Source: Alphaproteobacteria bacterium
Lineage (GTDB): Bacteria; Pseudomonadota; Alphaproteobacteria; UBA9219
NCBI GenBank assembly: GCA_028708035.1
Contig: JAQVZU010000002.1
Location: 300-64,299 of the forward strand
DNA: 64,000 nt
Direction of reading: 5' to 3'
The notes under the pieces: model-generated
The model's input: only the letters and a program-made list of their open reading frames with translations
The model's database searches: none
What the model was told of the DNA's origin: nothing
Shown here: positions 3,101 to 59,753 of the stretch, in pieces
Layout: each line of letters begins with the position of its first letter
Numbering within the stretch: the stretch's first letter is position 1
Translations under genes and position numbers: made by a program

Positions 3101-5025
3101 TGTGTTCTGCATCCCGTAAGGTCGGTGCTCCACGCCAGTTGCGTCGCGTCTTTTGCAAGCCTTTCTGCCAAAGCCGAATATTTGCAACCGCTTTGGACAA
3201 TATCCCCAAGCAAAGAAAGGCCGTTTTGCCACAACGAGTCCCCAAACGCGGAAATGTCCGCTTCCGGTAAATTCGATGCCGCCTTTGCCGCACTCGCGGC
3301 GACATTAAGGGAGTGAAGGGTGCTTTCGGTTGAAGGTATTTTTTGTTCGACCTCGACGGCATTATTTAGGATGGCCTCGAACAGGTTTTGAAGGTCCGAT
3401 AGGCTGTCACAAAGACGATCATATTCGTTGGGCAACAACTGCGAACGACGAACGCCGCGCCAAGGATGTTGCACGGGAAAGCCGATTTCTTTGATTCTGG
3501 CTGTTATATCGGCGAGGCGCTCTTTTTTGTCCTTTTTGTCGGCGGCAGACCAATTTTCAGGACATTCTAGAACGACGCCGCGAACGTCGATCTTGTTTTG
3601 TCGAAGACGAACGGATTCCCCAATAATCTGATAGGCCGTCAATCCCGAAGGCTGGTGTTGCTGGTGTAGAACTTTTGCGTGTTCATTGAGCTTATTTCGA
3701 AGGGAGGCCAGTTGAGCAAGCGTTTCTTGTCCGTTGCAGTTTTTGGGTCGCCCGATTTCGCGGGTGCGCTGGATTTCTTCGAGAACCGCCCGTTTGTTGG
3801 ACTTATTGCTATGAAGTTCAAGACAAAGGGAGCCAAGGCCAATATTCGTCATGCGGCGGAAGACGACTTCCAAAGCAGACATTTTTTCTGCAACAAATAA
3901 AACTTTTTTACCGTCCGCAACCGCGTTAGCGATTATGTTCGTAATTGTTTGGGATTTTCCTGTCCCCGGCGGTCCTTGAATGACCAAGTTTCTTCCGCGA
4001 CGCACTTCTTCAATCGCAAGCGCCTGAGAACTGTCGGCGTCCATGACATGTAGGATTCGTTCCGGCGGTAAAAATTGGTCTATATTTTCGTCTTCGCCGA
4101 TCATACCGTCCGTTACAGGGAACCCATCGGTAAGCAATCCTGCAACAAGCGCGTTTTTGTCAATCTTCCCGTCGTCGGGCCAAACTTCCGGGGCAAGATC
4201 ACGGTACATAAGAAATTTAGCGAATGAAAAGAAGCCAAGAACCATATCGTCTTCGATAACTTCAAATCGTTTGTGTGCCTCAACCGCCATTCGAATGGAG
4301 TTCATAAAGGCAGAAATGTCGAGTTCGTCGGTTTGAGGCAAATCGGGCAAAACAAGGCCGAATTCAGCTTTTAACTTAGCTTGCAACGAAAGGTTCGCTG
4401 CGCAATCTTCATTGCGCCAACGCAATTTGAATTTCTGTGCGGCGTTTCCACGATCAAGGGTTACCGGTACTAAAAACAACGGCGCATAACGCGCTTCATC
4501 GGAGCTTTCCGCTTCGAACCACTTCAACATCCCTATAGCGAGATAGAGAATGTTGACGCCCTGTTCCTCTTCAAAGGTTCGTGCATCATAATAAAGGGAA
4601 AGAAGGCGCTTTTGTAAACCTTCCGAAGTCAGCAAAGTTTGCAACCGATGATCTTGGTGACGTTGGGCAACGCCATTTTCGGAAACCTCATCATCTTCCG
4701 GTTGGGGCAACTCTCCAAAATCATCGTCTTCTTGAGGTTGCGCTGCGGGGTCAATGTTTGTATCCACTGCCGCCTTTTGCTTCTCCCTTCCCGGAAGAAA
4801 GGTCAGGGTTTTCCCTTCGGATACCAATAAACGATAGGTTTCCGTGGCTTTCTCGTCGCAGATTTCTATTGTTTTGGCGCTTTTCTTCTGTCTGGGAACG
4901 TTGAGAAGCCTATTTCTTAAAGACAAATCAAGAAGAGCCTGACGGCTTGTTTCAAGTTGCGCTGCGACAGTTGCCATTTGTTTTCCGCCTTGCCGATCAT
5001 TCCGAGAAAGGAATGATAGCGCCAT
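196..5025 (-). CDS. Large multidomain SF1 (Upf1-like) helicase with an N-terminal DUF4011 region, split AAA_11/AAA_12 helicase core, a DUF559/Vsr-like PD-(D/E)xK endonuclease-like domain and C-terminal DUF3320
   Basis: 1609-aa ORF with ATG start. Walker A is GPPGTGKSQT and Walker B is LLVMDEASQ. C-proximal helicase motifs SLIAVSNREFYENRL and VIFISVGYGRNS are present. The following region GIECDGASYHS...DRLRQAVLEDHGWIIHRIWSTDWF is typical of DUF559 REase-like domains, and the N-terminal LYLAIGMLKW...PLFLVPVTL block is typical of DUF4011. Confidence 0.8.
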   Translation of the reverse strand: MALSFLSRNDRQGGKQMATVAAQLETSRQALLDLSLRNRLLNVPRQKKSAKTIEICDEKATETYRLLVSEGKTLTFLPGREKQKAAVDTNIDPAAQPQEDDDFGELPQPEDDEVSENGVAQRHQDHRLQTLLTSEGLQKRLLSLYYDARTFEEEQGVNILYLAIGMLKWFEAESSDEARYAPLFLVPVTLDRGNAAQKFKLRWRNEDCAANLSLQAKLKAEFGLVLPDLPQTDELDISAFMNSIRMAVEAHKRFEVIEDDMVLGFFSFAKFLMYRDLAPEVWPDDGKIDKNALVAGLLTDGFPVTDGMIGEDENIDQFLPPERILHVMDADSSQALAIEEVRRGRNLVIQGPPGTGKSQTITNIIANAVADGKKVLFVAEKMSALEVVFRRMTNIGLGSLCLELHSNKSNKRAVLEEIQRTREIGRPKNCNGQETLAQLASLRNKLNEHAKVLHQQHQPSGLTAYQIIGESVRLRQNKIDVRGVVLECPENWSAADKKDKKERLADITARIKEIGFPVQHPWRGVRRSQLLPNEYDRLCDSLSDLQNLFEAILNNAVEVEQKIPSTESTLHSLNVAASAAKAASNLPEADISAFGDSLWQNGLSLLGDIVQSGCKYSALAERLAKDATQLAWSTDLTGCRTQIALHGKSFLRVFFPSYRQAIVLLTSIASGPLPKKYEDRLAFADDIISAQQLAALLKEHDEAGRKAFGKLWQGTHSDWAKLDNVLAWRKSVPDTLSPNDFLVSCSKIENAPTLSVPASSLEKLLPEFFSKLSELFRTLQLDVRAAFDVSTVEAINRDALHERLTSWARNTESLSKWISFNGRYDAICEGGLRTLGERLWKGTLLPDEAHDVFERAYYDTLTEVVFTEHPLLREFDGELHANLVENFRANDLHRIEQARIEIRQKHYNSLPRSEGGIGALGILNGEISKKRNHLPIRQLLKHAGLAIQAIKPVFMMSPLSVAQFLEPGSMTFDLLVMDEASQVEPVDALGAIARAKQIVVVGDSRQLPPTKFFSRVTDNANDNDDDDNAALAVQDVESVLNLCVARGFPQSMLRWHYRSRHQSLIAVSNREFYENRLFIIPSPYDAASGMGLKFNYLPQATFDSGGTATNPQEAKAVAKAVIQHAKDYPHLSLGVGTFSIKQKQAIIDELELLRRMHPETETFFTQAHIDEPFFVKNLENIQGDERDVIFISVGYGRNSSGYMAMRFGPLSSEGGERRLNVLISRAKRRCELFSSITADDIDLERAKGAGVSSLKLFLKFAQTGKLDFGRTTEREADSVFEEQVAAALRTRGYDVKTQIGIAGFFVDLGIVDPEKPGRFVLGIECDGASYHSSRSARDRDRLRQAVLEDHGWIIHRIWSTDWFRRPNEQLEKTVAAVEQAKKNLVAQEQEDERPKAKQVFEIVSYDDGNMLNVLVSVGEKSLSVPYQEAVVPVPSHREPHELGDNEMAEIVAKIVEAEMPVHESEIITRVRTLWNLGRAGSRIQDKVKAGLAHAVRRNLVAKDGEFYFKQDAEIKVRDRGAVSSLGLKKPENLPPSEIKKAVLTVIETNFGAEREQLPTEILRLFGFKSSSAQLREVIEAQIQDLLTQERLCQKGNTLLMCEGKKAVGH

Positions 5026-9773: not shown

Positions 9774-9776
9774 GCC

Positions 9777-10673
9777 ATGTGCGCAACCGATAAATCAACA
9801 ACTCCCCTTGCGCCTTCCGAAACACCGCGAAGCCTATGGCTTAGGCTTTGGCAAAAGGTCATCCATTTTATAAGTCCTCGGGCCGATGCGGAATCCCTGC
9901 GCGAAATGGTGGAGGAGCTTGTCGAAGATCCTCTTTCGGCATCTGGGCTGACGTCCGCTGAGCGGATGCTGCTTACAAATATTATCAAATTGCGTGAACG
10001 CAAAGTTATCGACTGTATGGTTCCGCGCGCCGATATTGTCGCGCTGGACGCAAGCGCTTCTCTCAAAGAGCTTGCCGAAGAGATGTCGAATAACGGGTAT
10101 AGCCGAATCCCTATTTATAGAGGCACGCTTGACGACGTGATCGGCATGGTGCACGTCAAGGATATAGTGCCGTTTCTCGCTCAGCAAAAACCTTGTGTCA
10201 TCCCGGATATTCTGCGGCCCGTTATGTATGTCGCACCGTCGATGCCTGCGTCTCGACTTTTGCTGCAAATGAGGCAGACGAGGCAGCATATGGCGGTTGT
10301 TATTGATGAATTTGGCGGCGTTGACGGGCTAGTGACCATTGAAGACCTCGTCGAAGAAATCGTCGGCGAAATCGAAGACGAACACGATATTCCGCCACCG
10401 CCGCCTGTTATTGCGCGCCCCGATGGAACCTTGCTTGCCGATGCGCGACTCGGCATTGAAGCGTTTGAGACACAGACGAAAATTTCTCTGCCGCGAGTCG
10501 ACGCCGAAGACGTGGATACACTTGGCGGCTATGTATCTCATTTGGCTGGAAAAGTACCTCAGGTCGGGGAGATCATCCAAGGACCAGGCGTTTCCTTCGA
10601 GGTCATTGAGATGGAACAAAGCAGGGTCAATCGTATTCGCATTCGCACGGTCCGGCGAATCCCCGAAAAGTAA
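9777..10673 (+). CDS. corC: CBS-domain Mg/Co efflux protein (CorC/TlyC family) with CorC_HlyC C-domain
   Basis: 298-aa protein with tandem CBS domains (MVPRADIVALDASASL..., IGMVHVKDIV) and a C-terminal transporter-associated domain. Confidence 0.8.
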   Translation: MCATDKSTTPLAPSETPRSLWLRLWQKVIHFISPRADAESLREMVEELVEDPLSASGLTSAERMLLTNIIKLRERKVIDCMVPRADIVALDASASLKELAEEMSNNGYSRIPIYRGTLDDVIGMVHVKDIVPFLAQQKPCVIPDILRPVMYVAPSMPASRLLLQMRQTRQHMAVVIDEFGGVDGLVTIEDLVEEIVGEIEDEHDIPPPPPVIARPDGTLLADARLGIEAFETQTKISLPRVDAEDVDTLGGYVSHLAGKVPQVGEIIQGPGVSFEVIEMEQSRVNRIRIRTVRRIPEK

Positions 10674-10838: not shown

Positions 10839-11468
10839 ATGTTTTCAAAAAACAAACCCTCGCAAGCGAGGAAGGGTTTTACCCTCACTGAAATTGCGAT
10901 CGTTCTTGGTATTATGGGGCTGATCCTGGGCGCCATTTGGACTGCGGCTTCAAGCGTTTACGCCAATCAACGTACAGCGCACGCACAAACGGCAATACTG
11001 CAAATTGCTCAGGGCGTCAGGACACTTTACACTTCACAGGGGGGCACGGGATACACAGCTTTAACGGATATTACGGTAAATCTGAATTCAGCAGGCGTAA
11101 TTCCAAGCGATCTTAACGGCGGAGCGACTGGACCCTTTCCCAATGGACGTTCGGGTATTATTGCAACAAGCGATGGGAACGGGTTCGTTGTCGTGGTAAC
11201 TGGTGTTCCTCAATCGAACTGCATTAACTTGATTGCAGGCATTGCGGGCGCAAACCGTGATCCCGGTCTGTTTTCAGCATCTGCCGTGGCTGATGCAGCC
11301 ATTGGTACTGGTGATGCAGGGACTGGGGCAACGTTCGCGCCCTTACAGGATGAAGTTTCACCGACAGAGGCTGCGGCAGCCACGGTAAACGATGGCAATG
11401 GCGCTCCTATCGGCGGTTGCAATCGTACCACACTCAGCAAAGTTCGGTTTGGCTTCTCGATTAAGTAA
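10839..11468 (+). CDS. Type IV pilin / pseudopilin (prepilin-type N-terminal cleavage/methylation domain)
   Basis: N-terminus MFSKNKPSQARKG|FTLTEIAIVLGIMGLILGAIW has the class III signal G/FTLxE followed by a hydrophobic helix. A Cys pair (C128...C195) could form a D-region. Confidence 0.7.
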   Translation: MFSKNKPSQARKGFTLTEIAIVLGIMGLILGAIWTAASSVYANQRTAHAQTAILQIAQGVRTLYTSQGGTGYTALTDITVNLNSAGVIPSDLNGGATGPFPNGRSGIIATSDGNGFVVVVTGVPQSNCINLIAGIAGANRDPGLFSASAVADAAIGTGDAGTGATFAPLQDEVSPTEAAAATVNDGNGAPIGGCNRTTLSKVRFGFSIK

Positions 11469-22202: not shown

Positions 22203-22238
22203 AGAAAAAGCCCGCTCAGTAGAGCGGGCTTTTTTTAC
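22203..22238. terminator. Bidirectional intrinsic terminator
   Basis: GCCCGCTC-AGTA-GAGCGGGC hairpin flanked by an A-run and a T-run, lying between convergent genes. Confidence 0.75.
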
Positions 22239-23470
22239 GCCCTGCGAACTTCCTCGCGCGGCGGGATGGGAATTGATCGTTTATCCGGATCATGCAGATA
22301 CATATTAAGCGTAACAACCGCAGTGTCGACTCGCGGAATGGGCAGCGGCTTCTTTGCCGAAGTCTCGGCCATAAAGTGAGCCAAAGCCCCTGCCCCTTCG
22401 GTGTGAAACGCACGGCGCCCAAGGTTATTCAAGGGATACCAAAGGGAACGGTCTTCGGCGCGGAGCCACAAAAACGTCGCTGGAGCAAGAACGCCGCCAT
22501 TAGTCCTTGCCCAACGCAATGCGCCAAGCATTGCCGTTGTCCGCCAAGCATGCTGATCCATGACGGGCAGAAGTTTTCCCCCGATTTCAGGATCTTTCAG
22601 AATTCTTTTGATCTCGGCGATGATCTCGTGGTCTGGACGAAAGCCCTTGTCGGGAAACCAGCATTCTGAGATACGTCCTAAGAATGTATCGCTTTCTTCG
22701 CGCTTCTGAGCGCCTCTGAGCGCGAACCCCGCGAGTAAGGCTTTCATGTGCAACGGTAAAGAATCGATCCCGTTCCACCGCGGCCCCAACTGCTGAATAA
22801 ACGCGCGCCGGACAGCATCGCGCTCCGGTATCCCATTATTCACAGGGATGCGATGCCATGAAATCCATTCCTCGGGCGAAAGCGCTTCGCCGAAGTGCGG
22901 GATTTTGTCCGGCACCGTGCCCCCGAGAATACGCCCTGATTTGGATGGATTCAGCTTTACGATTGGTGAGAGCACTGGCCACATCTTGGCTTGGGTCGCA
23001 ATCAGGCTTTCAAGAGTATGCTTGGTCATGAATTTATAGCGCGGGGAAAACATGATGCTAAACCCGCCAATCCATAGCAACATGAAAAGAACAGGCCAGC
23101 GATAATAGCGCTCAACCTCGGCAGCGATGGGAGCAAGCGAATTAAGCGAAAGCTGATAGTATGACAATAAATCTTCACGCGGAAGCGATCTGAGAAGATC
23201 GACGCCAAAACACGCGTTTGCAGCCTGAATGACCTGGCCGCTCGGGCGCGGATCGTTGACCTGAGCGGTACGAAGGAAAGTTAGGCATGCATCGTAATTA
23301 TGCGTGAAAAGATTGACGATGAAAAGTTCTCCCCAGCGCAACCACCGCAAAACATAGTTAAGCCAGAAATCGCCAGTCATGCGCCAAAAAACGTATGACA
23401 CCACCGCAATTAGCAAAAGCAGCAGCACAAGAAGAATGCCGGGTTCACCGCCTTGGTTTTGAGCACTCAT
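22235..23470 (-). CDS. Hypothetical membrane protein (two N-terminal hydrophobic segments, large soluble C-terminal domain)
   Basis: 411-aa ORF with ATG start. TM segments ILLVLLLLLIAVVSYVFW and WPVLFMLLWIGGFSIMF precede an acidic/aromatic-rich C-terminal domain. No recognisable catalytic motif. Confidence 0.55.
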   Translation of the reverse strand: MSAQNQGGEPGILLVLLLLLIAVVSYVFWRMTGDFWLNYVLRWLRWGELFIVNLFTHNYDACLTFLRTAQVNDPRPSGQVIQAANACFGVDLLRSLPREDLLSYYQLSLNSLAPIAAEVERYYRWPVLFMLLWIGGFSIMFSPRYKFMTKHTLESLIATQAKMWPVLSPIVKLNPSKSGRILGGTVPDKIPHFGEALSPEEWISWHRIPVNNGIPERDAVRRAFIQQLGPRWNGIDSLPLHMKALLAGFALRGAQKREESDTFLGRISECWFPDKGFRPDHEIIAEIKRILKDPEIGGKLLPVMDQHAWRTTAMLGALRWARTNGGVLAPATFLWLRAEDRSLWYPLNNLGRRAFHTEGAGALAHFMAETSAKKPLPIPRVDTAVVTLNMYLHDPDKRSIPIPPREEVRRA

Positions 23471-27962: not shown

Positions 27963-28625
27963 ATGGGACGTTTATTAACGCTAGATGATTTACAGAAGCA
28001 ATTTGATATCACACGCGACTCCCTTGCGGTCGCGCGGAGAGAAATCCTTGGCGCATCGCCCCTGCCCCCGGACTATTCACGCGACAGTTACAGTTTCTCA
28101 TATCTCCGCGCCGAGCGCATCGGCATGGCGATCATTTCAAATCGGCTTGAAGACATCGCTTTCCTTCCCCTTCATCTCGACCCGCGCGTCGAAATCATGA
28201 TGGATAATAAAAATTCTTTCAAAAAATGGCTGTCCTCAACTTGCCAAGATCAGCCCGACAGTACACAGTTCGGAAACGATTTTATTCATGCTCTAACGCG
28301 CGTTGCCGTAACACAAGGTTGGCAAAGCCCTGAATTTAGATCCATGGCGTATCGCATCGGAGAATTGTTTCATGATCTCTCTTGTCTTATCGGTTTGATC
28401 TATTACGGCGTTTGGATGGCCGAAAATGGAATAGGCGGCGTGTTGGTTTCCGACCCTTATGATCTTGAACGCACAGCGAGAGAAATAGCCGATCTGGCCA
28501 TCTCTCCCGAAGTACAGGATCTCATCGCCGACAACAACAAGGCCAGGCGCAAGCACGGTCCAGATTTACATCTTGTCGAAACAGCCCCAGACGGTGGCGT
28601 TCCGCCACCATTTTCTGATAGATGA
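27963..28625 (+). CDS. Hypothetical protein (no recognisable domain)
   Basis: 220-aa ORF with ATG start. It is divergent from mnmG and co-directional with the downstream GGDEF gene. Confidence 0.5.
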   Translation: MGRLLTLDDLQKQFDITRDSLAVARREILGASPLPPDYSRDSYSFSYLRAERIGMAIISNRLEDIAFLPLHLDPRVEIMMDNKNSFKKWLSSTCQDQPDSTQFGNDFIHALTRVAVTQGWQSPEFRSMAYRIGELFHDLSCLIGLIYYGVWMAENGIGGVLVSDPYDLERTAREIADLAISPEVQDLIADNNKARRKHGPDLHLVETAPDGGVPPPFSDR

Positions 28626-28708
28626 TCTTTCTCTACGGCGTTAAAGACTTGATTACTAATCTTTGCATATGCTGAATCTATGACATATTTCAAGTTTTAT
28701 GGACCATT

Positions 28709-30073
28709 TTGGTCATGACGAAAAAGATCCGCATTCATCCAACCGATGCGCCGTCAAAGCTAACGCATATCAACCAGAAACAGGTCACACCGGATTTCCG
28801 CTCGTTTTTCGACGAATTTGTCCAAGGCATTATTGTTCACAGAAACTTCAAGCCGCTCTACGCAAACAATGCATTCGCGTCGTTGTTCGGTTATAAAAAT
28901 TCTGGCGAGGTTTTGGCTCTTCCCCTACTTCGCGAGCTTGTTCCTAATGATCTTTGGCCATCCGTCGAAATTGAATACGACGAAATGATGCGCGGCCTTA
29001 AAGAAGCCTACATTGGCCGTTCACGATGTGTCCACAAAAACGGACAGGAATTCTGGTGCGCTATAACGCTACGCGTCATCGATTGGCTAGACGGCCCTGC
29101 AATGATGCTTACTGCCTATGACATTACCCAACAAGTCGAACTCGAATATGGCCTTCTCACCAATGAGCAAAAGCTGCGGTCTGTTCTAGAAATTCTCCCG
29201 TATCCTATCTACATCTCGCGGCGCTCCGATGGACAAATTATGTTTGTCAACAGGAAAAGCTGCCTGTTGTTTCAGAAAAGCGCTGGACAGTTTCTACGTT
29301 CCACCGCCGACGAACTTTTTGTCGATCCGCAGGACAGGCAAAATCTTTTGAACCTGTTCCAAACAATTTCGGACGTTCGAGAGATCGAGGTCCGAATGAA
29401 GACCTCGCAAAACCGCTCGTTCATCGCAGAACTTGCCTCCATAGCTATCGACTATAATGGAGACAAAGCTTTTCTCGTCGCTCTCAACGACATTTCTCAA
29501 AGGAAAATACTTGAAGCCGAACTTTTCAGGCAGGCCTCCATTGATGCGCTGACAGGGATCAACAATCGTGGGCATTTCCAAAGTCTGGCGGAACAGGAAG
29601 TACGCCGCGCGCGGCGTTTTTCAAGAGCCCTCACCGCCTTGATGATAGACATCGATTTTTTTAAGCCTATCAACGATACCTTTGGACATGCAGCGGGAGA
29701 TGTCGTTCTTCAAGGAATTGTGAAACGCGCTACAGAAAGCTTGCGTCAATCCGACTGCATCGGTCGTGTCGGTGGAGAAGAATTTGCCGTATTATTGCCC
29801 GAAACGTCCATCTCGGCGGCTTATGACGTTGCCGATCGTCTTCGCAAACATATCGAGGAAAAACCTATTGTTGCCGGACATCAAGCCATCTCTTGCACAG
29901 TCAGCATAGGCATTGCCGAATTGATTCCCGAAGACAGCGGCATCGACGATCTCCTAAGGCGCGCCGATAAGGCCCTTTACGCTGCCAAGCAAGCAGGCCG
30001 CAACAGGGTAGAGCCCAAAAGGGAGCTTAGTGAATCAAAAATAAGCGTGGGAAAAAGGGCCTCTGATTCCTAA
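28709..30073 (+). CDS. PAS-domain diguanylate cyclase (GGDEF, intact GGEEF active site)
   Basis: C-terminal GGDEF domain with the RxxD-like I-site region and active-site GGEEF (RVGGEEFAVLLP). N-terminal PAS-like repeats are present. Confidence 0.8.
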   Translation: MVMTKKIRIHPTDAPSKLTHINQKQVTPDFRSFFDEFVQGIIVHRNFKPLYANNAFASLFGYKNSGEVLALPLLRELVPNDLWPSVEIEYDEMMRGLKEAYIGRSRCVHKNGQEFWCAITLRVIDWLDGPAMMLTAYDITQQVELEYGLLTNEQKLRSVLEILPYPIYISRRSDGQIMFVNRKSCLLFQKSAGQFLRSTADELFVDPQDRQNLLNLFQTISDVREIEVRMKTSQNRSFIAELASIAIDYNGDKAFLVALNDISQRKILEAELFRQASIDALTGINNRGHFQSLAEQEVRRARRFSRALTALMIDIDFFKPINDTFGHAAGDVVLQGIVKRATESLRQSDCIGRVGGEEFAVLLPETSISAAYDVADRLRKHIEEKPIVAGHQAISCTVSIGIAELIPEDSGIDDLLRRADKALYAAKQAGRNRVEPKRELSESKISVGKRASDS

Positions 30074-30096: not shown

Positions 30097-31473
<1,377 letters not shown>

Positions 31474-31479
31474 TATATC

Positions 31480-32130
31480 GGGAGAAATTACAGCGAGGTT
31501 GCCCTAACTGGACACGTTCGCTAATGCTGGGTGAGATTCCGGCGGTAGATAAAAAGAAGCACGAAAACTACTGCGCCGGAGCAGGGCCTTCTTTAGACAA
31601 AGGAACGACCAAAGTCAAGAAGTCCTTGCGGCATAAGCTCAAAAGAATGTTCGATATTAACCAAAAAAATGGCTTTCTTGAAATTTTTTGTCTGAAGGCT
31701 TGTAAATTTAGAAAAGATTAAGAAATTTCTTAAATTGTATGTTTTAAGATTTGTTAACTTCCTTTTATGAGTTTTCCCCTCTCTTTTTTCTTAATATAAA
31801 TATAATAAAAGATTGTAGAAGTAAGTTGTATCAGTGAGTTATGTGGATACAATATATTCAAACACTATCCCTTACTTCTGCACAAATTTTTTACGATTCA
31901 TAAATCCAAGTTAAAATTTCTAAACAGTTCGTAACTTCTCATTAATCCTTCTTTAACCTAGACTTGGATAAATCTGTGGAAAACGAGGATAACTAAGACC
32001 AAAAGTTATCCCACTTATTAACAAAGGGTAAACAATAATTAACCAAGATGGTGATAAAAGTATGAACCAAATTGCTTGAAGCGTATAAAAAACTTGCTAA
32101 CTGGTTTTTTTGCCAACTTATCCCCACTAT
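31480..32130. other. Putative chromosomal replication origin (oriC) in the AT-rich rho-DUF299 intergenic region
   Basis: GC content here is markedly lower than in the flanks. A perfect CtrA-type site TTAA-N7-TTAAC lies at 31942-31957. DnaA-box variants TGTGGATAC (31842-31850) and TGTGGAAAA (31975-31983) are each 8/9 matches to TTATCCACA. A 16-bp palindrome TTAAGAAATTTCTTAA lies at 31718-31733. The downstream gene is the DUF299 homolog that flanks Cori in Caulobacter and Rickettsia. Confidence 0.5.
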
Positions 32131-32138
32131 TAAGAGCT

Positions 32139-32954
32139 ATGGCCTATCACATTCATCTCGTTTCGGACTCTACTGGAGAAACCATTGAAGCCGTTGCCAG
32201 AGCTTGTCTTGCGCAGTTTGAAGAAGTGGGAGTTAAAAAGCACTACTGGAGTCTCATCAGATCTGAACGATTGATGAAAATGGTTCTCGAAGGAATTCAG
32301 GATAATTACGGCCTTGTCCTCTATACTTTCGTCGACAAGGATCTCAGATTTATGCTTGAGACCTATTGCCATGAGCACGAAGTTCCGTGCATTTCGATTT
32401 TACGACCGGTTTTAAGGGGATTGATTTCCCTTTTTGGCAAACAACCTGCCCATAATCCGGGAAGGCAGCATACGCTAGACGAAAAATATTTTGATCGTAT
32501 CGATGCGATGGATTTTGCAATCGCTCAAGACGATGGCCATGGAGAGCAGAAGCTTGCCGATTCTGACGTTATCGTTATAGGGGTTTCGAGAACATCCAAA
32601 ACGCCGACATGCATGTATTTGGCGGGTCGAGGCATACGCGCAGCAAATGTTCCGTTTGTTCCGGGGCGCGCAATGCCGGATTTTGAGGATATGACGAAGC
32701 CGCTGATCGTCGGTCTTACAAAAGATGTGGATAACCTGATCGCAATTCGCCGAAACCGGCTCAAGATGCTTAAGGAAGACCGTGAAACGGCCTACACGGA
32801 TCCAGAAATAGTGCGAGAGGAGTTGCAGGAAGCGCGTCGTTACTTTGCGCGACTGGGGTGTCCAGTCATCGACGTGTCGCGCCGGTCCATAGAAGAAACG
32901 GCGGCTGAGATCATGATGCTTTTGTCACGTAAAAAAGAGGTCCACGAGAATTAG
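32139..32954 (+). CDS. DUF299 kinase/pyrophosphorylase (PEP synthetase / PPDK regulatory protein family, PpsR/PDRP)
   Basis: N-terminal MAYHIHLVSDSTGETIE and a P-loop-like GVSRTSKTPT. The ORF track starts earlier, at 32076. Confidence 0.8.
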   Translation: MAYHIHLVSDSTGETIEAVARACLAQFEEVGVKKHYWSLIRSERLMKMVLEGIQDNYGLVLYTFVDKDLRFMLETYCHEHEVPCISILRPVLRGLISLFGKQPAHNPGRQHTLDEKYFDRIDAMDFAIAQDDGHGEQKLADSDVIVIGVSRTSKTPTCMYLAGRGIRAANVPFVPGRAMPDFEDMTKPLIVGLTKDVDNLIAIRRNRLKMLKEDRETAYTDPEIVREELQEARRYFARLGCPVIDVSRRSIEETAAEIMMLLSRKKEVHEN

Positions 32955-33046
32955 GATACGCAACGCATTTTATGAGAATAAGGGGTTGGCATTTAATGGC
33001 GTTTGAGTTAAGAAGTGCTTAACTTCGCTTCCGTTCAAGACCCATT

Positions 33047-53275: not shown

Positions 53276-54799
53276 TTAGTTCTTGTTTTGGACGTAAGGC
53301 GTGTTGGCGTTGTTGCGTCCCGAGATAGAACCGCTGCCATTATAGCCGGTATTCACGCCGTTATAAGGGCCATTTTGTGAATTTACATAAGCGCCCGCCT
53401 CGCCGGGAAAATTCGACCTTCCTGGCGCATAGTTGACGCTGTATCCTTGACTGTACCCTTGGCTATATCCTTGATCGACAGTTGTGCTCTGTTGCGCCGG
53501 AGAAGAACCCTTGACCGCAGTCAAAAAGAACATGCCAAACGGCGTTCCCGGCGCGACGCGAACCAAAGGCCTCGTCACGCTGGCTTGTTGTTGAAAAAAC
53601 TGCCCGACCGTGTTGGCAGCCTGCCCTAATCCGGCATACATGCCTTGCTCAAATCCGGCTCGCGCTTGCGTTGTAATGGTTGTTGTGCCGGTATTGGTGA
53701 TCGATGTATCTCCCTGTCCCATCGCCTGCCCAATACCTTGAATAAAGCTGGCGGCGGCCGGAAGAACAACGCGCGAGAAATATCTTTCGTCAACCTCCGT
53801 CGCCATGCCCCCAAGAGTGGTTTCGGGATCCAGCGCAATAGCGTTGATCGAGTAATCCTTGCCGTTTTTGTCTGCCAGCGAAAACCTCATAACCAGATAT
53901 TTTTCATATCCGTCGGCGACCTGAAAAGAGCCTATCGCCCTCGCTCCAGTAAGGGGTCCCGACACAATCTGCGCAAGAATGGGACCCGGAACGTCAGAAT
54001 TGGCTTCCGACAAAAGCTGAGCATAACTGACGGTGCCTGGCGAAATAATCGGCTTCTGTTCGACCACCACCGCAGCAGCTGTTGATTCCACGCCCATGGG
54101 GACGTCTCCGCCCATAATTCTGTCGTTGCCGCCTACAAAGTCGGCATTAGCGTTTCCGCTGCTGGTGTTTTTGTTCTCATCCTTAAGAGAAACGGTAACC
54201 GCCTTCATGCCCTGCGCCTGCCAACTCGACATCAATTGGTTTAATTGTCTTTGCATGGCATCCGCGAGCGAATTGTCAAAATTCTCAGTTGGCCGCGTGG
54301 TCTTTTGCTGTTCGCGAACCTGCCGTTTAAGCTGCTCCGTCTCAGCGCGAAGTTCCTTCAGAGGATCGGCTCCCTTGTTGTTCAGGGCATTGCTCGAAAT
54401 ATCTGTCGTCTGCCCCAGCGGGGTTGGGATGGCACTTCCGCCCGTATTAAGCGCCTGCTCAACACGTTGATTGTTGGCAAGTTCGGTCTGCTGGCGCAAA
54501 TACGGAGATGCTTTGCCTCCGGGAGCTTCCTTAATAGATGGTGGGCGCGAGAGATGAGCAACCTCCTTCCCCTCATTGCTGCTGCCGAAGAATTTGATCG
54601 CGGCAGCGCCTACCGCAAAAACGCCAATGACCAGAGCCGTAAACTTAAACAAAGGCTTTTCGCGCAATGCCTCAACGATGGTTCCTATGCCGCTTTTTGG
54701 CGCGGATTCATCCACGGGTTCCATTTCGCTGTCGGAAAACTCGTTATTTTCCGTATTTTCGTCGTTCTCGCCGTTTTCATTTCCAAAATCAGTTGTCAT
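53276..54799 (-). CDS. VirB10/TrbI-family type IV secretion protein (DotG/IcmE-like)
   Basis: Acidic N-terminus, a single TM segment (FKFTALVIGVFAVGAAAIKFF), a coiled coil and a C-terminal domain matching the VirB10/TrbI signature (LSEANSDVPGPILAQIVSG...GSFQVADGYEKYLVMRFSLADKNGKDYSINAIALDPETTLGGMATEVDERYF). Start set at MTTDFG to remove the overlap with the upstream gene. Confidence 0.65.
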   Translation of the reverse strand: MTTDFGNENGENDENTENNEFSDSEMEPVDESAPKSGIGTIVEALREKPLFKFTALVIGVFAVGAAAIKFFGSSNEGKEVAHLSRPPSIKEAPGGKASPYLRQQTELANNQRVEQALNTGGSAIPTPLGQTTDISSNALNNKGADPLKELRAETEQLKRQVREQQKTTRPTENFDNSLADAMQRQLNQLMSSWQAQGMKAVTVSLKDENKNTSSGNANADFVGGNDRIMGGDVPMGVESTAAAVVVEQKPIISPGTVSYAQLLSEANSDVPGPILAQIVSGPLTGARAIGSFQVADGYEKYLVMRFSLADKNGKDYSINAIALDPETTLGGMATEVDERYFSRVVLPAAASFIQGIGQAMGQGDTSITNTGTTTITTQARAGFEQGMYAGLGQAANTVGQFFQQQASVTRPLVRVAPGTPFGMFFLTAVKGSSPAQQSTTVDQGYSQGYSQGYSVNYAPGRSNFPGEAGAYVNSQNGPYNGVNTGYNGSGSISGRNNANTPYVQNKN

Positions 54800-56045
54800 G
54801 TTCTTCTTCCCGCAAAATTTGAGCGCGAACGAGCGCGCCATTATCCGATAGCACAAGGACGGGCGCGGACCCTACTTCATATACGGACGTGCCATCCGGC
54901 GATACCATGCTGGCATTCCATGCGGGCGAAAGAAGGGTCAAAGGCGTGCGTACATAAACCTTATCGCCAATGGCCCACGCCTTTGTTCTTTGATCCAATC
55001 CCCCTACTTTGACGCGCGTCGCTCCTGGGGGCGGCGTAGTCTCAAGAAAGTGGGCCAGAGTATCATCACCGGCCTGGGGCCTGGAGAAACTGCTACGTTC
55101 GACAAGAGGCGGCTTGGCTTGAGGTCCTGATTTATCGATGCGCGCATCATAGCGTAGATCAACGGTAGGCCCTCCTGACGAAAGTCTGAAAATGACAGGC
55201 GTCGGAAGATTTTTAAGCATGACAGAGAGATTGCCTACGCCGATGCGCGTCAAAGGCATGACGCGAACCACATGGGACCCAGCCCCGGTTGGCGTTACTT
55301 CAAAATTGCCGCCGATGCCGACATCCAGGATTGGCCAAGGTTCCCCGGTTGAATCCACAATAGTAATCGTTGTTATAAATCCAGCGTTCAGATTAATCTG
55401 CGGTGGCGAAACGCCCGGATCGAGAGACACAGGAATCAAACGTGTAATTCCTTTTGGCGTGCCTTCATAAGGAGGTTGCGATGCCTGCTGAGTTTGTTCC
55501 AATCGCCGCATGAAATCGCGAATTTGGTCCGGAGATAGCGGCAGAAGTCCGTTTGATGCCTTGTCGTAGGATTTGGCGTTATACTCGCGCTCTCTCTTCA
55601 AGGCCTCTGCATCTGCATCAGCCTCAGCTTGAAGGGCTGCTTGTGAGGCTTCCTGCGCCAGCTTCGCCGGATCGGAAGAAAATGCCGATGCAGGCGGCGG
55701 GGACGGAATATCGATGCCCGATGAACTGGACACAATTTTCTTCGGTGGCGTTGCCGCAGGCGGATTTGTTGCAGGAGGAGGATTTCCAACCGGTTGCGGC
55801 GCGACATCTGGCGTTGAAGAATCCGCTGCCGGAGATATGTCTGCGATTGTGGGCAGGACAACGGGTGCTGAAGAGGATTTTGAATCAGTCGGCGCGTTGG
55901 GAATGGCAATGCCTGATGGAGCACTAGAAGCAGAAGGCGAAGCCCCTGAAACGGCAAGCAGGACTCCCACTGTAAGCAGGAAGATTTTTCTCCGTCTTGT
56001 CGAGAGGTGAAGCGGCTGGTTCAGCAAAGGACATCTCCGGAGCAA
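54789..56045 (-). CDS. VirB9/TrbG-family secreted protein (DotH/IcmK-like)
   Basis: Sec signal peptide (RRRKIFLLTVGVLLAVSGASPSASSA), a P-rich region and a C-terminal region with the VirB9-like pattern (...IGDKVYVRTPLTLLSPAWNASMVSPDGTSVYEVGSAPVLVLSDNGALVRAQI). Confidence 0.6.
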   Translation of the reverse strand: MLRRCPLLNQPLHLSTRRRKIFLLTVGVLLAVSGASPSASSAPSGIAIPNAPTDSKSSSAPVVLPTIADISPAADSSTPDVAPQPVGNPPPATNPPAATPPKKIVSSSSGIDIPSPPPASAFSSDPAKLAQEASQAALQAEADADAEALKREREYNAKSYDKASNGLLPLSPDQIRDFMRRLEQTQQASQPPYEGTPKGITRLIPVSLDPGVSPPQINLNAGFITTITIVDSTGEPWPILDVGIGGNFEVTPTGAGSHVVRVMPLTRIGVGNLSVMLKNLPTPVIFRLSSGGPTVDLRYDARIDKSGPQAKPPLVERSSFSRPQAGDDTLAHFLETTPPPGATRVKVGGLDQRTKAWAIGDKVYVRTPLTLLSPAWNASMVSPDGTSVYEVGSAPVLVLSDNGALVRAQILREEEHDN

Positions 56046-56657: not shown

Positions 56658-58166
56658 CTAGTCACGCTTCGTTTCCATCGCATCCTGATCGAGCAAGGGC
56701 TTCCCAGTTTCTTTGCCTTCGTCAAAATGCGCAGTTCTCAAAAGCCGCAGCAAAAGCTCGACATCCTCGCGAAACGCCGCGTCATATGCCGATAATTCCT
56801 CAATCTTTCTTACTGCATGAATGACAGTGGTGTGGTCGCGCCCGCCGAATTTGCGTCCAATTTCAGGAAGGCTTCGCGGCGTCAGTTGCTTGGCCAGATA
56901 CATCGCGACTTGCCGAGGCCGCGCTACAGCCCGCGACCGGCGCGCCGAATGCATGTCGGCCACGCGAACGTTATAATGTTCAGCGACTTTTTTCTGAATT
57001 TCATCGATCGTAACCCGCCGTTCGGATGCGCGAAGCATGTCCGAAAGGACTTCTTGCGTCATTTCCAGAGAAATCGTTCTCCCCACAAGCTGCGCATGCG
57101 CCACAATGCGGTTCAGCGCGCCTTCAAGTTCGCGCACGTTCGACGCGATCTTATGCGCTAGAAATTCCATGACCTTATCAGGCACCGGGCATCCAAGCTT
57201 CTCGGCCTTGGCATACAGAATCCCGAGCCGCAACTCGTAGTTGACCGGGTGCAGATCCGCAACCAATCCCCATCCCAAGCGAGAGCGCAGCCGCTCCTCC
57301 ATCCGGTCCAAGTCCTGCGGGGATTTGTCCGCCGAGATAATAACCTGGCGATTTCTGTCAACCAGCGCATTGAATGTATGGAAAAATTCCTCTTGCGTGG
57401 AATCCTTTCCGCCAATGAACTGAACGTCGTCAATCATCAAAACGTCAACGGACCGGAATTGTTCTTTAAATGAAACAGTGTCCTTAAACCGAAGAGCCCG
57501 CACGAATTGATACATAAACTTTTCGGCCGACATGTAAATAACGCGGCGATGCGGGTAATTCTTTCTGATGTGCCAAGCAATGGCGTGCATAAGATGGGTT
57601 TTTCCTAGCCCGACGCCTCCGTAAAGGAAAAGAGGATTGAATGCCGGAGTCTCGGTGTCGGCGACGCGACGAGCGGCGGCATAAGCAAGTTCATTGGGCT
57701 TTCCGACAACAAAATTGTCGAAGGTAAATCGCGGATCAAGTTCTGCCGAAAGCTCGCCGCTAAAACTTCCCGATCCCGCTGGTGCCGAAACGGGCAGCCT
57801 TCCTATGGGCGCAAGAGGAGCGGCAGCCGCTGCATCGATAGCAGTTTTAGCTTGCGCCGCCTTTGACAAAGGAGAAAGAACTGAAAAACTGACACTCCCG
57901 CGAGGCGACATCTCCTGCCACAAGGAAAGAATGGCTTCGCCGTAATGCGCCTCGACCCAATCGCGCATAAAGCGGGTGGGCAATACCAGCGCGGCGCATT
58001 TGCAGCCCGAAGCCTCATGAACGACAGCGCCGGTCATGGGTTCAAGCCATCTGCGAAAAGCTGTTTCGCCAAATCGACTGCGCATTGAGGCGCGCAAAGT
58101 TCCAAAGGCTATCTCAGGATTACCGGAATCTTCTTCTTTAGAAATCGCGTTTGATAGGACCTTCAT
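56658..58166 (-). CDS. dnaA: Chromosomal replication initiator DnaA
   Basis: Walker A GGVGLGKTHLMHA, box VII, sensor regions and the C-terminal DNA-binding domain (VAMYLAKQLT...GGRDHTTVIHAVRKIE). The ORF track begins at a GTG at 58169. Confidence 0.9.
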   Translation of the reverse strand: MKVLSNAISKEEDSGNPEIAFGTLRASMRSRFGETAFRRWLEPMTGAVVHEASGCKCAALVLPTRFMRDWVEAHYGEAILSLWQEMSPRGSVSFSVLSPLSKAAQAKTAIDAAAAAPLAPIGRLPVSAPAGSGSFSGELSAELDPRFTFDNFVVGKPNELAYAAARRVADTETPAFNPLFLYGGVGLGKTHLMHAIAWHIRKNYPHRRVIYMSAEKFMYQFVRALRFKDTVSFKEQFRSVDVLMIDDVQFIGGKDSTQEEFFHTFNALVDRNRQVIISADKSPQDLDRMEERLRSRLGWGLVADLHPVNYELRLGILYAKAEKLGCPVPDKVMEFLAHKIASNVRELEGALNRIVAHAQLVGRTISLEMTQEVLSDMLRASERRVTIDEIQKKVAEHYNVRVADMHSARRSRAVARPRQVAMYLAKQLTPRSLPEIGRKFGGRDHTTVIHAVRKIEELSAYDAAFREDVELLLRLLRTAHFDEGKETGKPLLDQDAMETKRD

Positions 58167-58514
58167 CACAACCCCGCAAAAAACGAAACCATCGACAAAA
58201 GAAACTACAGACCCGAAAAGAGTCTCCGGGCTTTTAATCGGACAGACTTTTAGGACGTAGAGCGAGAGGAAGGACCGGCGCAGGAAAAACAGCGATCAAA
58301 AACGGGTTGTGATTTATATCCGTTCATAGTTTTGATCCTATCCACCGGCATCAAATCCAAAGTGGAGCGACCATAAATCAAACCGAAGCCACTTGTCCAC
58401 AGGACCGAAGAGAGAACGACTGAAAAAATTTTTTCTCAAACAGAAAAAATTTCTTGCCACGCTAAAATGTGCAACAACAAAAGGACGAAATAAAAAATTG
58501 ATGAAGTGAAGCAG

Positions 58515-58563
58515 AAAAAAAATCCAAAATAAAATCGCCGCATTCACATCGAACACGGCGATT
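58515..58563 (-). terminator. Intrinsic terminator after rpsT
   Basis: ATCGCCG...CGGCGAT hairpin followed on the minus strand by TTTATTTTGGATTTTTTTT. Confidence 0.6.
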
Positions 58564-58587
58564 GGTAAAACTAAAAAAGGGAAGAAG

Positions 58588-58857
58588 TTACGCTTTCTTG
58601 GCAGCAGCTTTAGCGCGCTTTGCCAAACGCGAAGTCTTGCGCGCGGCAGTCTTCCAATGAAGCGTCTTTCCAGCGTCCTTCGAGAGTGCGGACTCGGCTC
58701 GACGCAATGCCTTGACTGAAGCGGCGCTGTCTCCCGCGGTTGCCGCGGTTTCCGCTTCCTTGGACAAGGTGCGGATCGCCGAACGACGCGAACGATTGGT
58801 TTCATTGCGCTTGACGGTCTGGCGCGCGCGCTTTTTAGCGGATTTGTGGTTTGCCAT
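58588..58857 (-). CDS. rpsT: 30S ribosomal protein S20
   Basis: MANHKSAKKRARQTVKRNETNRSRRS... matches S20. The ORF track start is too early. Confidence 0.85.
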   Translation of the reverse strand: MANHKSAKKRARQTVKRNETNRSRRSAIRTLSKEAETAATAGDSAASVKALRRAESALSKDAGKTLHWKTAARKTSRLAKRAKAAAKKA

Positions 58858-59108
58858 AATCTTTCCTGAATCCCATTTCGAGTTAATGCTCCGCGCGGAA
58901 GATCCGCGGGATCTTTTCACGCGAGCGAGAACTCATACGCTAACGCCCTCAAAATGGTCAAGAAAAATCGGATAAACAAGGACTTTCGCGAACCCGCACG
59001 CTCAGCAAATTGGTTCTGGACCCTGAAGGAACAAGATCTTATGTTCATCTTTAAAGACGCGGCCTAGTTGCGCCTTTGTGTGAAATCACGGAACGGAACG
59101 GCTTACCC

Positions 59109-59753
59109 ATGACCGAGCATAATTTCTTACAGGAAGTTCAAGAAGACTTCGAGCGCAAGAAACTCGAAGCGCTTTGGGGAAAATACGGGTTTTGGATCAT
59201 TCTTGCGGCGGTCGGCATCGTCGTTTCGACGGCGAGCTCGACAGCTTACCGTTCGTGGAAGCTTGATCGCAACCGAGACCTCACGCAAAAACTTCTGACC
59301 GCAAACCGCGAACAGCCTGAAATCTCGAAGAATATCGACCTGTTCGAAAAATTTGCCGATGAACACAAAGGCGCAAGCCAAACTGCGCTCGCATATTTGC
59401 GCGCAGGATCGCTAGCGCTTAACCAGAAAGACAATGCTAAAGCCATCGCTTACTTCAACAAGCTGTCTTCCGACGAAAAAACCGACCCGATTTTTCGCGA
59501 CCTTGCCACATTGCTTTCTGTCCAGGCGCAGATGGACGTTGGGAAGCCAACGGAACTTTTCGAACGCCTCAAACCTGTAGCTGCTGACTCCTCGGCTTTC
59601 CGCTATTCTGCGCTCGAGGCGCAGGGTTATCTTTCTCTTCGTGCGGGAGACAAGGCGGCGGCGCAGACGATTTTCACGCGCCTGTCGCAGGATGCGCAAG
59701 CGCCGAAAAGCCTTGCGGCGCGCGCCACTGATGTTCTTCGTGCCCTTAACTAA
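59109..59753 (+). CDS. YfgM-like TPR-containing membrane-anchored protein (UPF0070), upstream partner of bamB-der
   Basis: Single N-terminal TM segment (FWIILAAVGIVVS) followed by a TPR-like helical domain. It sits in the yfgM-bamB-der gene order. Confidence 0.6.
   Translation: MTEHNFLQEVQEDFERKKLEALWGKYGFWIILAAVGIVVSTASSTAYRSWKLDRNRDLTQKLLTANREQPEISKNIDLFEKFADEHKGASQTALAYLRAGSLALNQKDNAKAIAYFNKLSSDEKTDPIFRDLATLLSVQAQMDVGKPTELFERLKPVAADSSAFRYSALEAQGYLSLRAGDKAAAQTIFTRLSQDAQAPKSLAARATDVLRALN

Follow-up and report, generated by a model that had tools for sequence, protein, structure and literature searches.

A probable chromosomal replication origin between rho and a DUF299 gene in an uncultured alphaproteobacterial lineage

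In Caulobacter crescentus experiments have placed the origin of replication between hemE and COG1806 (DUF299), and the origin of Rickettsia is predicted in the same intergenic region, hemE|DUF299 (PMC1914354), which raises the question of what becomes of the origin at a locus where the DUF299 gene is present and hemE is not. Such a locus lies in a 64,000-nucleotide stretch of contig JAQVZU010000002.1 (assembly GCA_028708035.1; the whole 64-kb stretch is called the window below, and positions are counted within it), from a metagenome bin of an uncultured 'Alphaproteobacteria bacterium'. Here a 665-bp spacer separates rho, the left boundary gene (30097-31473, minus strand; NCBIfam TIGR00767, E = 5.8e-212), from a PDRP/DUF299 gene (COG1806, yqfL-type; 32139-32954, plus strand; NCBIfam NF003742, E = 6.8e-95; Pfam PF03618), which does border the spacer downstream as a first-pass annotation of the sequence had recognized. 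That annotation had also proposed the spacer as a candidate oriC, a reading now supported by homology to the hemE|DUF299 spacers of relatives and by conserved DnaA boxes, an AT tract and DnaA-trio-like repeats. On this comparative evidence we think it likely that the segment 31,773-32,138 is a functional chromosomal oriC and the orthologue of the origin that lies between hemE and DUF299 in Caulobacter, Rickettsia and Azospirillum.

Homology and composition of the candidate origin

The hemE|COG1806 arrangement is considered the ancestral alphaproteobacterial configuration, with boundary genes rearranged in the Anaplasmataceae (PMC1914354), and the oriC of Azospirillum has been placed between yqfL and hemE (Ori-Finder 2022 / DoriC ORI97017823; preprint 10.64898/2026.09.14.751567). 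The comparison took in about 160 loci, half of them from species-representative genomes and half from metagenomes (80 each), along with several gene neighbourhoods around the closest PDRP homologues. About 120 loci, including those of Azospirillum, Skermanella and many uncultured lineages, have rho, (hemJ), hemH and hemE on one strand and PDRP on the other, across a spacer of 360-670 bp. In the subclade to which the window belongs (L002-L004, L082-L084, L085 and L086, with PDRP 72-83% identical), hemE, hemH and hemJ are absent at the locus, and the distance between rho and PDRP is 590-1140 bp; none of the three genes was found anywhere in the 64-kb window. The first-pass view that hemE has been lost or relocated thus agrees with the wider comparison, and the hemE-hemH(-hemJ) block has evidently been deleted or moved from the origin flank in this subclade. 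A metagenome scan for further members of the subclade brought in little beyond a single sister genome (L087) and a distant lineage without hemE, L156/L157, whose PDRP is 50% identical and whose boundary is likewise rho|PDRP (L156, at 4380-5010 of the 3.73-Mb contig WLWI01000002.1). L156/L157 probably represents an independent loss of the heme genes, so that the hemE-less boundary probably arose more than once; L156 nonetheless retains the same order of origin elements.

A nucleotide profile (nhmmer) was built solely from nine hemE-type outgroup spacers, with the window's subclade excluded. Its sole forward match in the window was at 31773-32158, spanning model positions 4-407 of 410 (E = 2.3e-17); a second match was weak and fell on the reverse strand of the same region (E = 4e-4). 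The profile also recovered the spacers of all subclade members. A match over nearly the full model marks 31,773-32,138 as the orthologue of the hemE|DUF299 intergenic region, and because that region is the origin position of relatives we read the spacer as an origin. Its elements are the following, with DnaA boxes scored against a nine-letter consensus.

31773-32138, plus strand: candidate origin module, homologous to the hemE|DUF299 spacers found in relatives
31784-31815: AT-rich tract, candidate DNA-unwinding element, >90% A+T, mean column identity 0.63-0.73 over 15 genomes
31816-31825, plus strand: DnaA-trio-like repeats TAG AAG (T) AAG; consensus of relatives GTAGTAGTAGGTAGTTGG
31842-31850, minus strand: DnaA box TGTGGATAC, 8/9, 16 nt from the trios
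31963-31992, minus strand: three co-oriented DnaA boxes, CTTGGATAA (31963-71), TGTGGAAAA (31975-83) and CGAGGATAA (31984-92)
32006-32014, plus strand: inverted DnaA-box-like TTATCCCAC, with the aligned block TTATCCC at 32006-12 and TTAT.C at least 90% conserved across 15 genomes (alignment A2, positions 247-252)
32118-32126, plus strand: DnaA box TTATCCCCA, 8/9, 12 nt before the PDRP start codon

Alignments were made of six subclade spacers and then of these together with the nine hemE-type outgroup spacers, giving 15 genomes. The six are only about 46% identical overall, yet contain invariant blocks, and the nine outgroup spacers show identical blocks in identical order. Conservation over the 15 genomes reaches maxima of 0.71-0.81 mean column identity, against 0.43 overall, and it peaks at the AT tract with the trios, at the left box, at the tandem boxes and at the box nearest PDRP. 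From left to right, the elements in their conserved order are the AT tract, TAG-type trio-like repeats, DnaA box, a TTAA-N7-TTAAC site (considered below with the CtrA-type sites), three tandem boxes and two inverted boxes. The trio-like repeats are kept in all 15 aligned spacers and in L156. The left box follows the pattern G(T/G)GGAT(A/T)A, in which G..GGAT is invariant (A2 positions 84-89), and the aligned box has at most two mismatches in 11 of the 15 genomes. In the tandem boxes, TGTG of the middle box and a G of the third are invariant, and the same two-mismatch limit holds for the middle box in 11 genomes and for the third in eight (of 15 each). At TTATCCCCA, all but one of the eight columns of TTATCCCC are invariant, and the box is within two mismatches in 15/15.

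The AT-rich core of the spacer (31640-32140) has 24-30% GC (0.29 overall) against about 51% for the window, that is, an A+T content more than 20 points above the window average. The AT-richness ascribed earlier to the whole spacer therefore holds for this core and fails for the leftmost ~165 bp (31474-31640), where GC content is normal. As a standard for the motif counts, the spacer was shuffled 1000 times with its dinucleotide composition preserved. DnaA boxes with at most one mismatch numbered three (0.17 expected), those with at most two mismatches ten (2.2 expected) and TATCC cores six (1.07 expected), and none of these counts was reached in any of the 1000 shuffles; there was no enrichment of GANTC in the spacer relative to the same shuffles. 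The spacer also contains the densest 500-bp window of DnaA boxes in the 64 kb (nine boxes at up to two mismatches, where the mean is 1.27 and the sd 1.21). The box scan that the first-pass annotation had called for thus finds a cluster far above chance, the two 8/9 variants it had picked out, TGTGGATAC and TGTGGAAAA, are present where it had put them, and its TTATCC-type motifs are real (TTATCCCAC and TTATCCCCA).

The left end of the module fits the bacterial basal unwinding system (BUS), the combination of DnaA boxes, DnaA-trios and an AT-rich region described in Bacillus subtilis (PMC8287927, PMC10721633). Under the published search rules, the DnaA box may have up to two mismatches and the spacer up to 16 bp, and three or more NAN trios must be followed by an adjoining AT-rich region (PMC8287927). 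The window has all of these on one strand: TGTGGATAC, with one mismatch, is separated by 16 nt from AAG/TAG/AAG trios at 31816-25, which adjoin the AT tract (31784-31815). The order 5'-AT tract, trios, spacer, TGTGGATAA-3' appears to match the BUS orientation, as deduced from the strand numbering in PMC10721633 and from the E. coli oriC. Unlike BUS, the window has a single clear box by the trios and no obvious tandem pair, with a trio frame that is broken by one base. The trio pattern alone is permissive in AT-rich DNA, and its weight comes from conservation across 15 or more genomes.

Two further sets of candidates were set aside. The PDRP coding sequence itself contains a perfect DnaA box, TGTGGATAA (32726-32734), which is shared only with L082, so it was treated as probably incidental. 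Small open reading frames called in the spacers, one of 65 amino acids (aa) in L001 and three in L083 (49, 62 and 142 aa), do not recur from one relative to another, and the longest of them has no Pfam family.

Among known origins, the one predicted for Azospirillum, the nearest named genus, is like the module in its orthologous position, its roughly six DnaA boxes and its co-oriented repeats with one inverted. In the spacers of Azospirillum and Skermanella, too, a short AT tract leads into purine-rich NAN repeats and then TGTGGA(A/T)AA with an abutting second box. Azospirillum differs from the window in retaining hemE-hemH-hemJ and in having the mnmG-parAB block on the other side of the origin, and in the window's module the left box and the tandem boxes stand ~110 bp further apart, the added stretch holding the CtrA-type site. 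Azospirillum spacers (L015-L073), moreover, carry about ten GANTC (CcrM-type) sites in 430-500 bp (for example L015 9565-9994, L035 9488-9994) and no CtrA-type site, whereas the window's subclade has 0-3 GANTC, which suggests a different use of methylation at the origin.

The Caulobacter origin (Cori, between hemE CC3763 and CC0001) shares with the window the position beside a DUF299/COG1806 gene, an AT-rich tract, a cluster of imperfect DnaA boxes, a TTAA-N7-TTAA(C) site close to those boxes, and rho, mnmG, rsmG and parAB nearby. The window differs from Cori in having a rho promoter/leader in place of hemE, one full CtrA-type site plus a half-site instead of five, neither an IHF consensus nor GANTC enrichment in the spacer, and dnaA 25 kb off.

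In the Rickettsiales, predicted origins lie at hemE-COG1806 in Rickettsia and at COG1253-hemE in Wolbachia, Ehrlichia and Anaplasma (Ioannidis et al. 2007, PMC1914354), in AT-rich intergenic regions of 380-620 bp for which DnaA boxes, 0-7 CtrA sites and IHF sites are reported (PMC1914354). As in that order, boundary genes at the window's locus are rearranged while the origin persists. The two cases differ in what was kept: Wolbachia, Ehrlichia and Anaplasma kept hemE and lost COG1806, and the window kept COG1806 and lost hemE, with no IHF site found in it.

Points against an origin and rival readings

Several results weigh against an origin at the spacer. Position beside COG1806 alone is not decisive, the predicted origin of Wolbachia having stayed with hemE (PMC1914354). 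The skew minimum that the first-pass annotation would have placed here did not appear: per-gene GC skew was regressed on gene strand and side of the spacer, over a 64-kb window that is short relative to the replicon, and there was no switch at 31.8 kb (side t = -0.5 for all positions), while for third codon positions the side coefficient had the wrong sign (t = -2.2). Cumulative skew has a mere local dip at 31-32 kb and falls on to the right end of the window, and gene-strand bias is about 50:50 on either side of the spacer. The strict IHF consensus WATCAANNNNTTR was not found, and of two loose WATCAN5WTR matches neither is conserved. Although parAB are encoded at 23.5-25.3 kb, a scan of the 64 kb for the parS consensus TGTTTCACGTGAAACA that allowed three mismatches found no match. 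Finally, there is the one full CtrA-type site to the five of Cori, marginal when taken alone (P ~0.05).

Skew over 64 kb neither supports nor refutes an origin. The absence of IHF sites lowers the resemblance to Cori more than it lowers the origin call, since the IHF feature varies among predicted origins, and parS may be divergent or lie outside the window. The strongest breakpoint in strand-corrected third-codon-position skew was at ~20-25 kb (t ~-4.6), with the plus strand G-richer leftward, the opposite of the sign of an origin; it may be a compositional boundary.

The rival that best survives is that the module is a conserved regulatory region bound by DnaA, perhaps also by CtrA, serving as a PDRP promoter/operator or as a DnaA-titrating or reactivating site, with initiation elsewhere, for example by a relocated hemE or outside the window. 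It gains from the placement of the invariant TTATCCCCA box just before the PDRP start codon, within the likely 5' region, as well as from the unswitched skew, the absence from the window of IHF site and parS, and the Wolbachia precedent, in which the predicted origin went with hemE and not with COG1806 (PMC1914354). We nonetheless hold it to be unlikely. The whole module is constrained in the hemE-less subclade, including an AT tract and trios that lie 300 bp from PDRP and have no obvious promoter role; the same module is retained in the separately hemE-less L156; and no other intergenic region within the 64-kb window, the surroundings of dnaA included, was found to have comparable binding-site content.

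An origin beside dnaA (~58.2-59.6 kb), which would make the rho-PDRP spacer an unrelated AT-rich intergenic region, had been named as an alternative in the first-pass annotation and on checking is clearly worse than the spacer. While dnaA does lie inside the window (56658-58169) and cumulative skew is still falling toward that end, the interval 58170-59640 (1471 bp) has 49% GC, only the background density of boxes (five at up to two mismatches, one box at up to one) and no comparable AT tract. The known alphaproteobacterial origins are not dnaA-adjacent (PMC1914354), and a skew breakpoint at 58.25 kb is unsupported (t = -1.5). We rejected this candidate for its background DnaA-box density, and regard such an origin as highly improbable.

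Chance, by which the spacer would be an AT-rich divergent-promoter region with DnaA- and CtrA-like words arising from its composition, is effectively refuted: although the full CtrA-type site is only marginally unexpected in the shuffles (one observed, 0.06 expected, P ~0.05) and TTAA words occur there at the expected frequency, the DnaA-box counts exceed all 1000 composition-matched shuffles, up to 15 genomes have the motifs unchanged at homologous positions, and the outgroup profile finds the module.

CtrA-type sites and a proposed initiation mechanism

If the spacer is an origin, is it one under the control of CtrA, as in Caulobacter? The sites that bear on this are as follows.

31942-31957, plus strand: CtrA-type full site TTAATCCTTCTTTAAC, that is, TTAA-TCCTTCT-TTAAC, conserved in the subclade
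31910-31914, minus strand: conserved GTTAA half-site, at the aligned position in 7/8 closest genomes
33007-33023, no strand assigned: palindromic CtrA-type site GTTAAGAAGTGCTTAAC, in the PDRP-mreC spacer, upstream of mreC

The first of these, a perfect site, is exactly as the first-pass annotation had described it. TTAATC.....T.AAC is invariant in the six subclade genomes, with a perfect TTAA-N7-TTAAC in five and one mismatch in L082. The site is degenerate in the sister hemE-bearing genomes L005, L087 and L006 and absent at that position in the remaining outgroups and in Azospirillum (L072 and L078 have a full site ~10 nt off). It is the sole full site in the 12-20 kb examined for each of L002, L003 and L004. 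In the 64 kb, 0.46 full sites would be expected by chance and two are present (31942 and 33007). The second, GTTAAGAAGTGCTTAAC, is a perfect palindrome conserved in the three closest genomes; it is kept in L082 and L083, has one mismatch in L003 and L004, and is preceded by a conserved GTTGGCA. Its presence suggests that a single regulator may act both on mreCD-mrdA and at the origin site. Two near-sites in the spacer had also been put forward. The TTAA-N7-TAAAC at 32018-32033 is located correctly, its weight reduced by being kept only in the three closest genomes, and the TTAA-N7-AAAC is present one nucleotide off (31911-31925), with only its GTTAA half conserved. L083 carries two extra CtrA-type full sites (9775-9813).

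No CtrA-like gene was matched by tblastn in the window or in the 164 collected loci, a search made with an approximate Caulobacter CtrA query and uninformative for the whole genome. From the conservation of the motif, a protein with CtrA-like specificity plausibly binds 31942-31957; that CtrA itself acts on the candidate origin is a tentative proposal, which we judge possible and somewhat less than even. More doubtful is the further idea that the origin of this Dot/Icm-bearing, Azospirillum-related lineage is directly CtrA-gated by a site acquired and fixed in the subclade and its sister group, roughly coincident with the loss of the heme genes. If true, direct CtrA control of initiation would have arisen or persisted outside the Caulobacterales and Rickettsiales, and might be tied to a host-associated, heme-scavenging lifestyle.

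The order of elements suggests how an origin of this design could work. DnaA would bind the box at 31842-50 and oligomerise leftward onto the plus-strand trio repeats at 31816-25, whereupon the AT tract (31784-31815) would melt for helicase loading; the tandem boxes at 31963-92 and the inverted boxes at 32006 and 32118 would build and orient the rest of the DnaA complex. The CtrA-type site at 31942-57 separates the unwinding unit from the tandem boxes and ends 5 bp short of the nearest one, so that phosphorylated CtrA (CtrA~P) bound there might hinder DnaA assembly as in Caulobacter; this is the least certain step. With the heme block departed, the rho promoter/leader adjoins the candidate origin via a variable AT-rich linker.

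Flanks of the module and the surrounding genes

The part of the spacer to the left of the origin module divides in two.

31474-31640, minus strand: rho promoter-like element and ~110-nt leader, a block of normal GC conserved in six subclade genomes
31641-31772, no strand assigned: variable AT-rich linker, with low conservation and length variation in alignment A1

On the strand of rho the first block reads CTTGACTTT-N17-TAAAGA, with a -35-like TTGACT at 31618-31613 and a -10-like TAAAGA at 31595-31590, a promoter-like element that we assign to rho by reading the sequence. The leader has a conserved hairpin, CCGGCG/CGCCGG, plus CTCACC; the hairpin shows no covariation, and no Rfam family was found in the spacer (E<=1) or in the whole window, leaving a known riboswitch or small RNA unsupported. 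The block, which lies outside the origin module, is possibly an autoregulatory leader of rho. Its ~165 bp of conserved, non-AT-rich promoter/leader sequence intervene where rho had been said to abut the AT-rich region directly, so that this detail of the first-pass annotation needs correction. The linker includes a 16-bp palindrome, TTAAGAAATTTCTTAA (31718-31733), and in L083 and L084 carries an insertion of ~450 bp between the rho leader and the origin module (L083 8852-10000; L084 768-1916) bearing a 139-142-aa open reading frame without a Pfam family.

The neighbourhood is of a core, origin-proximal type, with parAB, mnmG, rsmG, rho, dnaA and dnaG near the spacer. On the left, minus-strand genes run in the order dotM-like, parB, parA, rsmG, mnmG, followed, between mnmG and rho and on the plus strand, by genes for a 220-aa protein of unknown family and a PAS-GGDEF protein. 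On the right, PDRP, mreC, mreD and mrdA (plus strand) precede hslUV (minus strand); dnaA is on the minus strand ~25 kb from the spacer, and dnaG, secA, der and bamB are also inside the window. The gene blocks on both flanks are directed away from the spacer. The mnmG-rsmG-parAB block, left and on the minus strand here, is right and on the plus strand in Azospirillum and L061, pointing away from the spacer in both, and this placement on opposite sides is consistent with the pattern expected from inversions symmetric about an origin.

Some further observations concern the surrounding genes. No mnmE lies between rho and mnmG (27963-30073), where the 220-aa protein of unknown family and the PAS-GGDEF diguanylate cyclase are encoded instead. 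Genes of Dot/Icm type IVB secretion are dispersed among core housekeeping genes (22235-23470, 53276-54856, 54789-56045 and 10839-11468), comprising DotM/IcmP beside parB, a TrbI/DotG-like gene and DotH/IcmK beside dnaA, and a PilS-like pilin; the DotM-parB adjacency is kept in L083. Together with the absent heme genes, the Dot/Icm genes hint at a host-associated lifestyle. A minus-strand gene at the left end of the window (196-5025) encodes a large helicase-nuclease, of a kind often linked to defence or repair; the protein has 1609 aa, and its domains are DUF4011, AAA_11/AAA_12 (helicase), REase_MTES_1575 (nuclease) and DUF3320.

What we describe is very probably an expected alphaproteobacterial origin with a rearranged left boundary, one that leaves current understanding in place. 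It puts a probable replication origin on the map of an uncultured lineage known only from metagenome bins, which is useful for orienting assemblies and for coverage-based estimates of growth rate, and the aligned spacers outline cleanly a design, running from AT tract and TAG-type repeats through a box to tandem boxes, that Azospirillum-related genomes share at the origin. The lineage-restricted conservation of the CtrA-type site is a hint on the reach of direct CtrA control of initiation. If the spacer is indeed the origin, then loss of the heme genes from the locus can leave the module in place beside DUF299, the converse of what has been inferred for Wolbachia.

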